Source: Eledone cirrhosa
Taxonomy: Eukaryota
DNA length: 64,000 nucleotides
NCBI GenBank assembly: GCA_964016885.1
Contig: OZ024751.1
Location: 47,182,001-47,246,000 of the forward strand
Direction of reading: 5' to 3'
The notes below the pieces were generated by a model that saw nothing but the letters and a program-made list of their open reading frames with translations, had not been told where the DNA came from and did not search any database. Below are positions 33,423 through 34,282 of the stretch, one piece after another (position 1 is the stretch's first letter; each line of letters begins with the position of its first letter). A program made the translations under genes and the position numbers.

Positions 33423-33572
33423 ATATTGTTATACTTTGGGAGGGTCATGTTGCCAATAAGAAACACACGCACCAGTTGCTTTCACTTCAATTTATTATAT
33501 ATTTATAAATTTATAAATTTCTGGTTGGTTGATTGGTTGGTTGGTTCCACAACCAGATAGTTGTTTATATAT

Positions 33573-33617
33573 AGTCATAGTTCTTTCGTCACACACTCTG
33601 TGACCTCTTCAGTGACT
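33573..33617 (-). ncRNA. Minimal hammerhead motif, inverted copy of 34031-34075
   Basis: Reverse complement of 34031-34075 within the left arm of the fold-back. Confidence 0.72.
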
Positions 33618-34030
33618 GGGGATTCCTTTCTTTGTTTCTGTGCCTCTCCTTTGTTCTGTCCTACGCCATTTTGTTTCTGTGTGTGTGTTGTGTGCTCAGT
33701 CTGCGCATGCGCCACACAGAAAAGACGCGATGTTTAGACAAATTACAGAGGCAATAAACATAAAAGAATTACAACCAAAATTAAATAGAAAATATGAGTG
33801 GAACAGCAACATCACAACTTACAATTAAGGACAAAATGAAAACACACACACACACATAGAACAAACAACCAACCAGTAACATGTAAATAAACAAATAAAT
33901 AAATGAACATAAACACACACAGACACCCGGATGTGGCGCATGCGCAGACTGAGCACACAACACGCACGCAGAAACAAAATGGCGTAGGACAGAACAAAGG
34001 AGAGGCACAGAAACAAAGAAAGGAATCCCC

Positions 34031-34075
34031 AGTCACTGAAGAGGTCACAGAGTGTGTGACGAAAGAACTATGACT
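34031..34075 (+). ncRNA. Minimal type I hammerhead ribozyme motif in a Penelope pLTR
   Basis: agtca-CTGAAGA-g-gtcac(agagtgt)gtgac-GAAA-gaac-TA-tgact. Stems I and II pair; stem III is very short. Confidence 0.75.
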
Positions 34076-34282
34076 ATATATAAACAACTATCTGGTTGTG
34101 GAACCAACCAACCAACCAGAAATTTATAAATTTGTAAATTTATAAACATATAATAAATTGAAGTGAAAGTAACTGGTGCGTGTGTTTCTTATTGGCAACA
34201 TGACCCTCCCAAAGTATAACAATATCGGTTTCAACACACGATTTCAGATAAAGAATCTTGCTAAACAAATTCAGAAACGAAA

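Follow-up and report, generated by a model that had tools for sequence, protein, structure and literature searches.

A 5'-truncated Penelope-like element with inverted arms and a minimal hammerhead motif inside a (TA)n satellite of Eledone cirrhosa

The window analysed here, a stretch of 64,000 nucleotides from Eledone cirrhosa, holds an 860-nt insert at positions 33423-34282 which breaks up a 10-kb (TA)n-CAAAGG satellite. Repeat analysis of the window places the host satellite, (TA)n-CAAAGG(TG), on the left flank at 23226-33422, and the same satellite resumes on the right at 34283-34867 in the orientation of the left array. The insert is a 5'-truncated Penelope-like element (PLE) lying within a TA run, and the window contains one copy of it. 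The initial annotation, whose coordinates are correct, had described an insertion into a TA run of the satellite, and (TA)n-CAAAGG is indeed found on both sides. A target-site duplication is unreadable inside (TA)n, the 404 TA runs of the left array having a median length of 15 nt and a maximum of 46 nt.

The element is framed by two inverted arms of 294 nt each (33423-33716 and 33932-34225), which are 96% complementary when compared without gaps and are spaced 215 nt apart. In a gapped alignment they differ by four substitutions and two 8-nt indels, 286 nt being aligned with a difference of 1.4%. The sense arm belongs to a 3' UTR or pLTR region (33829-34225, + strand), recognised by its position after a stop codon and by the same order in relatives. 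The left, inverted 5' arm (33423-33716, - strand) is the reverse copy of 33932-34225 and carries a partial pLTR with the first 26 nt of a putative ORF start and without the tail; the stop codon lies 103 nt beyond the point where this arm stops. The tail itself comprises the 57 nt at 34226-34282 (+ strand) and is found at the sense end only, as indicated by the comparison of the arms and by family reads that are clipped behind 34225 into (TA)n. The inverted pLTR copy that had been announced is therefore present in the form of these arms, although a direct repeat is absent in this copy and the name pLTR consequently rests on position. The description of the insertion as young is fair, with four substitutions in 286 aligned nt between the arms. 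If the rate of 0.09 per 25 million years quoted in PMC13282606 is applied, the insertion would be about 2 million years old, and gene conversion between the arms would make this age too low.

Between the arms lies the 5'-truncated 3' end of an RT/GIY-YIG ORF (33713-33828, + strand), with 37 codons from 33715 and the stop TAA at 33826-33828. It was delimited by a profile match and by the upstream continuation in other copies. The peptide of this stub contains RQITEAINIKELQPKLNRKYEW in the + frame from 33715, and the frame ends in RQITEAINIKELQPKLNRKYEWNSNITTYN. An exhaustive phmmer search of the 37-aa peptide against 1.84 billion proteins gave two matches at E up to 0.001, P0001 and P0002. The first is a repetitive protein and was treated as a probable chance match. 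The second (E 9.4e-4, 19/31 identical) consists of a linker and a GIY-YIG domain and is placed by the Atlas among eukaryote clusters with GIY-YIG and RT; the ten best Foldseek rows for its model were the GIY-YIG domains of UvrC and I-TevI, with E values of 0.013-0.19 and none at E up to 0.001. P0002 led to P0003 and then, in a follow-up search, to 48 longer proteins. The profile used for that search included the window peptide, so that the search for relatives is partly circular and the phmmer search is the unbiased link.

An alignment of 18 relatives shows the layout of a PLE, with LppKFA, TDKS, RT motifs with YVDD, a CX4CXXC linker and a GIY-YIG domain whose end reads RQxxEAxxIxxxxPxLNxKxEW. 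Residues of the stub fall on the E and N that are conserved in the GIY-YIG domain, in the last helix of the RT+GIY-YIG proteins. A search of the window, cut into 2550 six-frame segments, with a profile built without the window peptide gave the stub as its sole included match (E 6.5e-9). On the same profile it scored 33.8 bits at positions 819-850 of 861, against at most 3.3 bits for the 990 scored of 1000 shuffles. The frame had been read as a GIY-YIG C-terminus ending at 33828, a reading that turned on similarity by HMM, and this similarity was found.

Pfam, when run on three translations of both the stub and the putative ORF start described below, gave one weak unrelated match and recognised neither peptide. 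Among the 18 relatives it found RVT_1 in four and GIY-YIG in two, all under the curated cut-offs, and in seven long relatives it gave no match at E up to 0.01. A word-based protein search with a 40-aa stub returned no candidate and the PDB sequence search only two weak RT matches (E 0.0024 and 0.098). The Atlas feature search of the stub led to unnamed short clusters, with GIY-YIG clusters only at 0.78, which is a lead and not evidence. At the level of sequence a PLE origin of the stub is supported. The relatives have a PLE-type RT upstream of the endonuclease (YVDD, DKS, RVT_1). In the copy at 33423-34282 the RT and most of the endonuclease are missing, so that it cannot move by itself, and the earlier statement that the 860 bp display the whole architecture has to be corrected.

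At the DNA level the alignment of relatives found 34 loci in metagenome contigs and confirmed none of 42 viral and none of 8 prokaryote-genome candidates. Sixteen of the 34 loci, those that reach from the ORF end to at least 184 nt beyond it, were examined, the other 18 stopping earlier. A minimal hammerhead was found within 300 nt of the ORF end in seven of these 16 loci, always with an extra G (7/7); the seven come from about five families and were detected with looser thresholds than those used in the window and without a shuffle control. With a looser hammerhead pattern, 10 of 18 loci gave a match, compared with 12 of 153 control windows. The order in the relatives is stop codon, minimal hammerhead with extra G and ATG, which is also the order at 33423-34282. 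Locus L003 carries an inverted 5' arm in which the hammerhead is included, and locus L002 is arranged as a head-to-tail tandem. The ORF of L002 reaches 1632 codons because its N-terminal part contains an internal tandem repeat of low complexity (493-1165 and 1883-2407), which recalls the inserts described in rotifer Penelope ORFs (PMC3846280). The exact DNA pattern of the family had no match in metagenome and viral contigs, and a full-length copy of the family was not recovered from them.

The sense arm contains a minimal type I hammerhead motif at 34031-34075 (+ strand). Its CUGAAGA core lies at 34036-34042 and is followed by an extra G at 34043, stem II at 34044-34060, GAA, and AGAACU at 34064-34069, with a predicted cut after A34070 (H17). 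The core is full and G10.1-C11.1 is present, helix I has 5 bp and helix II 6 bp, and AGAACU occupies the place of stem III. A mirror copy of the motif is found in the inverted arm (33573-33617, - strand, core at 33612). Searched on both strands of the window, the hammerhead descriptor gave five matches, namely 34036 (+) with 33612 (-), 22186 with 22094, and a stray one at 18797. None of 5000 dinucleotide shuffles of 33829-34225 matched it. The minimal hammerhead motif of the initial annotation is confirmed, as is the extra G after CUGAAGA. Among the best 40 of 107 variant rows the core positions are without a variant. The folding energy is unremarkable (z -0.72, 50 of 200 shuffles folding as well), and Rfam, searched at E up to 10, detected no hammerhead, its matches being generic hairpins far below the gathering scores.

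The stem III of 2 bp that had been proposed does not stand, since it would have to close a loop of 2 nt and the monomer therefore forms at most one pair. AGAACU is an imperfect palindrome that pairs with itself at four of six positions, with a self-duplex energy of +2.4 kcal/mol, whereas helix III of the relatives is a perfect 6-nt palindrome in all five checked (-0.8 to -4.8 kcal/mol). A variant at 34066, which makes up 20% of the depth in the public run X1 and 43% in the run X22, would bring the helix III self-duplex to -1.7 kcal/mol. As the two hammerheads of the insert lie on opposite strands, no dimer can form in cis. A read-through transcript is predicted to fold into a single long hairpin (-537 kcal/mol), with the motif paired to the left arm. 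Judged by these folding models, the hammerhead of this copy may be a weak version, and it would cut only weakly, as a dimer or with the help of a protein.

An ATG at 34200 lies 164 nt behind the hammerhead core and opens the putative first 27 codons of an ORF (MTLPKY..., 34200-34282, + strand), nine of them within the arm and pLTR and 27 with the tail included, before the frame runs into the TA satellite. The support for this start is positional. L002, L003 and L006 have an ATG 92-148 nt after the hammerhead, and the peptide starting there is homologous to the N-terminus of a long ORF; from the agreement in position we infer that ATG 34200 is the ORF start. Compared with the N-termini of six relatives, the MTLPKY peptide scored no better than shuffles (160 to 1793 of 2000 scoring as well), and on the profile of the relatives it reached -2.5 bits. 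Of the proposal that both peptides belong to one ORF, the half concerning the KLNRKYEW end holds, as it matches the RT+GIY-YIG profile, but MTLPKY is without similarity to the relatives. Likewise, the 3' extension said to open an ORF agrees with the relatives in position and not in sequence.

This dissimilarity would be expected if the PLE end were real but ATG 34200 were not the start of the RT-EN ORF, the 27-codon run having arisen by chance and the true start lying elsewhere, for example after a 5' UTR intron. Such an intron is described for Penelope in PMC8557442. An open run of 27 codons is short, and three of the six translated variant sites listed in 34226-34282 alter a residue when 34227 is set aside, a variant that probably reflects copies ending at 34225. 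We regard a chance run as unlikely, since the position equals that in relatives where the ATG behind the hammerhead is the ORF start and since PLE N-termini are in any case poorly conserved, as is evident from the alignment of the relatives. In addition, a rotifer Penelope pLTR holds the first 12 codons of its ORF with the tail extending to 22 (PMC3846280), which may be compared with 9 and 27 here.

The family to which the insert belongs is present in public reads. Parts of 33717-34282 occur in 20 of 24 listed runs, and 13 runs under 10 organism labels have a share of at least 0.27. The near-identical words under 10 organism labels may point to close relatives or to horizontal transfer. Four runs (X1, X4, X14 and X22) were aligned to 33692-34296. 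Matches were obtained for 13,659 of 16,285,364 contigs in X1, 393 of 8,254,286 contigs in X4 and 184,519 of 12,467,656 reads in X22, and the copies range from more than 99% to less than 90% alike. In the RNA run X14 one of 6,837,252 contigs matches, over 78 nt and less than 90% alike, which is no evidence of expression; runs X14-X20, with a small word share, were left out as evidence. By these counts the family is abundant, and about 88,000 RAD molecules that start at one site inside a palindrome of the element suggest thousands of copies. One 96-nt contig of X4 (organism B) covers the hammerhead without any difference from the window; X21, a run of the same study, has none. The depth of X4 jumps to about 17,000 at 34217-34258, against a few hundred to about 1,000 elsewhere, with variants of its own at 34227 and 34242. 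A related family of higher abundance that has just the ORF start in common with this one may be the cause.

Loose ends before 33713 occur in 17 contigs of X1, 2 contigs of X4 and 1,757 reads of X22, with an agreement of 0.78-0.97. The sequence clipped there, on which the three runs agree, was read by eye and gives nine codons in the same frame with no stop, having an alternating hydrophobic pattern like the strand that precedes this helix in the relatives. As other copies continue the frame upstream, the ORF was cut at 33713 and the CACA at 33713-33716 belongs to both pieces. This 4-nt overlap of the inner end of the inverted arm, which ends at 33716, with the start of the ORF stub constitutes a junction microhomology; it sits in a CA-rich stretch and can arise by chance. 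Seven variant sites fall in the stub among the best 40 of 107 variant rows, none of them at a second codon position, and five of the seven leave the residue unchanged if 33769 and 33771, two sites of equal depth, are translated together. At the opposite side, loose ends of TA type behind 34225 were found in 148 contigs of X1 and 2,653 reads of X22, and other copies of the family reach the TA flank at 34282, the 57 nt after 34225 being the tail. A further 3,225 X22 reads form a cluster whose clipping point is 34271, the sequence beyond being AT-rich and mixed (agreement 0.35). The outer end of the family may vary, and no high-agreement continuation behind 34271-34282 was present among the loose ends listed.

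The same reads bear on whether the 860-nt unit could be a non-autonomous mobile element, either MITE-like with terminal inverted repeats or a retrozyme, which moves as one piece. Long terminal inverted repeats in a TA target are what such an element would have, and non-LTR retrozymes have been proposed to derive from PLE pLTRs (bioRxiv 10.64898/2026.07.22.740005). However, the inner junction is not common to the family, the X1 depth being 0.46 at 33692-33712 and at least 294,208 from 33713, and the family reads run on into ORF-like sequence upstream. With a single copy in the window and no tandem array of hammerhead units, we consider movement as one piece very improbable.

The palindrome GCGCATGCGC had been noted in the pLTR, and a string search of the window found it at two sites only, in the sense copy at 33936-33945 and in the inverted arm at 33703-33712, 4 nt from the inversion junction. 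RAD reads start within it at 33939 and 33942. We take it to resemble an NRF1 site, as a candidate only, and a literature search conducted mostly outside subscription papers found nothing on NRF1 in Penelope pLTR promoters. The palindrome may as well matter for the inversion.

Another pair of hammerheads lies in an inverted repeat at 21990-22290, which has 115-nt arms (97%), a 71-nt loop and a minimal hammerhead in each arm and is followed by a TA run. Its cores at 22186 (+) and 22094 (-) have A-U and not G-C at the base of helix II and an 8-bp helix I. The longest BLAST match between this repeat and 33423-34282 is 12-19 nt with E 0.33 or worse; as no sequence is shared, the link between the two hammerhead hairpins is one of architecture only. 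To this extent the suggested connection of the hairpin-plus-hammerhead elements with Penelope retrotransposons holds, the architecture being alike and the sequence not. By this analogy, the shorter hammerhead hairpins situated in TA runs, 21990-22290 among them, are likely to be PLE ends from other families that have lost more sequence by truncation.

Several further repeats were observed in the window. Perfect 111-nt inverted arms with a 48-nt loop are found at 22956-23225, between TA runs and without a match to the hammerhead descriptor; they may mark the end of a PLE that lacks a hammerhead, for instance a Naiad. A GC-rich near-perfect hairpin of about 115 nt follows directly after a TA run at about 22730-22850, also without a descriptor match. 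Tandem arrays with a 112-nt unit of a short interspersed repeat, at 34862-35579 and 37856-38395 in opposite orientations, flank a TA-satellite block at 35567-37448. Finally, a 43-nt tandem array is enclosed by a large inverted repeat at 8958-11189, whose three pairs of arms measure 79-156 nt (91-97%); a tRNA-like match lies at 9263-9326.

The reading that we favour, with a probability of about 85%, is that the insert is a 5'-truncated copy of a high-copy PLE with a C-terminal GIY-YIG endonuclease, probably inserted by an intact copy via two primings joined at CACA/TGTG. According to this model an intact copy elsewhere would have supplied the RT-endonuclease, which would have nicked both DNA strands in the TA run, and reverse transcription would have been primed at two sites of the element RNA. 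The first cDNA would extend from the tail end (about 34282) to 33713 and the second from 34225, 57 nt further in, to 33932. Their joining head to head via the 4-nt CACA/TGTG overlap would give the inverted arms and the one-sided tail. The anole PLE studied in PMC11167929 offers precedents, as its protein cuts and extends both strands in vitro and prefers AT-rich DNA, and reverse transcription starts at two internal sites bounding the tail. The anole protein is also a predicted dimer, and its hammerhead needs protein. No on-topic literature on inverted Penelope ends formed via microhomology or twin priming was found in a search mostly outside subscription papers.

The joining step, as distinct from the identity of the element, has a rival in fold-back, in which the 3' end of a single cDNA (TGTG, 33713-33716) would have annealed to its own CACA at 33932-33935 and been copied out to 34225. 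Self-priming on an antisense template has been proposed for PLE inversions with junction palindromes (PMC3846280), and in the present element a palindrome lies 4 nt from the junction. The arms carry the same letter at the listed polymorphic sites of the family, for example 33947, 33990, 33995, 34002, 34010, 34022, 34066, 34070, 34075 and 34089. Their agreement means that both come from one source, which fits either model. Fold-back, however, does not by itself account for a stop at precisely 34225, an end common to many family copies, whereas two RT start sites bounding the tail have been demonstrated in vitro (PMC11167929). Its loop would be 215 nt long, with no tight hairpin at the palindrome. 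Moreover, at each of the four sites where the arms differ by a substitution, the letter of the left arm accounts for at least 98% of the X1 depth and the change is private to the right arm; the chance of this is about 1 in 8, which makes it a weak argument. Fold-back is thus a plausible but the less probable way of joining and two primers the more probable one, and the present data do not separate the two.

The inversion could in principle have been produced by the assembly or the library, as a fold-back read. Inverted PLE structures are known to trouble assemblies (PMC8557442), and no listed contig spans the whole stretch. Nevertheless the arms differ by four substitutions and two 8-nt indels, the arm ends at a site used by many family copies, and the relative L003 has the same arrangement, so that we believe an artefact to be almost out of the question.

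The sense-copy letters at 33729, 33964, 33968, 34147 and 34170 differ from nearly all of the X1 depth. All five are transitions, and three of the five private changes are A-to-G on the sense strand; five changes are too few to call RNA editing. A more specific version of the two-primer model, which we put forward tentatively and hold to be doubtful, regards the insert as the fossil of a two-ended integration. A dimeric enzyme would have primed two RNAs at the tail-bounding sites on opposite target strands, the cDNAs would have been joined by microhomology, and the one-sided changes would come from a separately edited second RNA. If this were true, the family could settle the origin of PLE inverted ends from genome sequence alone.

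The single locus matters little, being a dead fragment of a described class of retrotransposon, although it can serve as a clear example for teaching and gives access to an abundant family. The inverted 5' copy, the tail, the ORF start in the pLTR, the extra nucleotide after CUGANGA, the opposite-strand hammerhead pairs, the predicted need for a dimer and the (TA)n targeting are all already in print. PMC8557442 treats as open how the tandem and inverted ends of PLEs and their microsatellite bias arise. A family that is young and high in copy number, has two sharp 3' ends and varies naturally in helix III of its hammerhead is good material for these questions.

The element works like, and by its testable features is, a canonical C-terminal EN+ PLE, while we infer the RT and the clade of the family. 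It is like these elements, and most like the Nematis clade (Craig et al. 2021, PMC8557442), in the common 5' truncation, the adjacent inverted 5' copy, the one-end tail, the pLTR hammerhead and the (TA)n target. That paper gives truncation, inverted copy, tail and (TA)n bias as typical of PLEs, with a usual tail of 30-40 nt compared with 57 nt here. The location of the ORF start inside pLTR and tail, and palindromes at inversion junctions, are described in PMC3846280. Nematis has a CCHH-type motif and a short CX4CXXC linker (PMC8557442, Fig. S2), which are seen in the relatives of the insert as well. A CX2-5CxxC linker and CCHH, which characterise the Nematis and Neptune clades, are invariant or almost so in 23 relatives (C50, C55 and C58; C76, C79, H116 and H121 of P0002), in a region outside the 37-codon stub. 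These motifs of the relatives, and not a tree, suggest a placement in Nematis.

Other PLE groups were considered and rejected. In Naiad and Chlamys the endonuclease is N-terminal and a canonical hammerhead is absent; here the endonuclease stub ends the ORF and a hammerhead comes after it. The Hydra clade is described in PMC8557442 as having no CCHH, a CxCX5C linker and CxxC and CxH around the conserved E and N, whereas the stub is without Cys around E and N and the relatives have CCHH. Five short motifs of the element (two of 6 residues, one of 5 residues, an N-terminal one of 6 residues and a 13-nt hammerhead string) were absent from the supplement of PMC8557442, so that, as far as the line breaks of the file allow, the octopus Naiad and Hydra families given in it do not include the element. 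Non-LTR retrozymes, covered by PMC7229834 and bioRxiv 10.64898/2026.07.22.740005, consist of tandem non-coding units of 150-450 nt, each with a type I hammerhead, and at this locus one sense unit is attached to an ORF stub with no tandem.

When compared with the minimal hammerheads of metazoan PLEs (Cervera and de la Pena 2014, PMC4209133), the present motif differs in helix III, with the imperfect AGAACU and its +2.4 kcal/mol. Full-length Pen2a, a Penelope of Adineta vaga, has two direct pLTRs and a 9-bp target duplication (Arkhipova et al. 2013, PMC3846280), and neither is seen here. PAc, a Poseidon element of Anolis carolinensis (Frangieh et al. 2024, PMC11167929), is alike in having two 3' ends that bound a tail in the ORF start, an AT-rich target and a pLTR hammerhead. 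It belongs to another clade: the relatives have a linker Zn-finger, which is a feature of Neptune and Nematis. The ORF of PAc starts within the hammerhead, and reverse transcription starts 111-118 nt into the ORF, whereas in the element described here the ATG lies 164 nt behind the core and the two ends fall 26 and 83 nt into the putative ORF.
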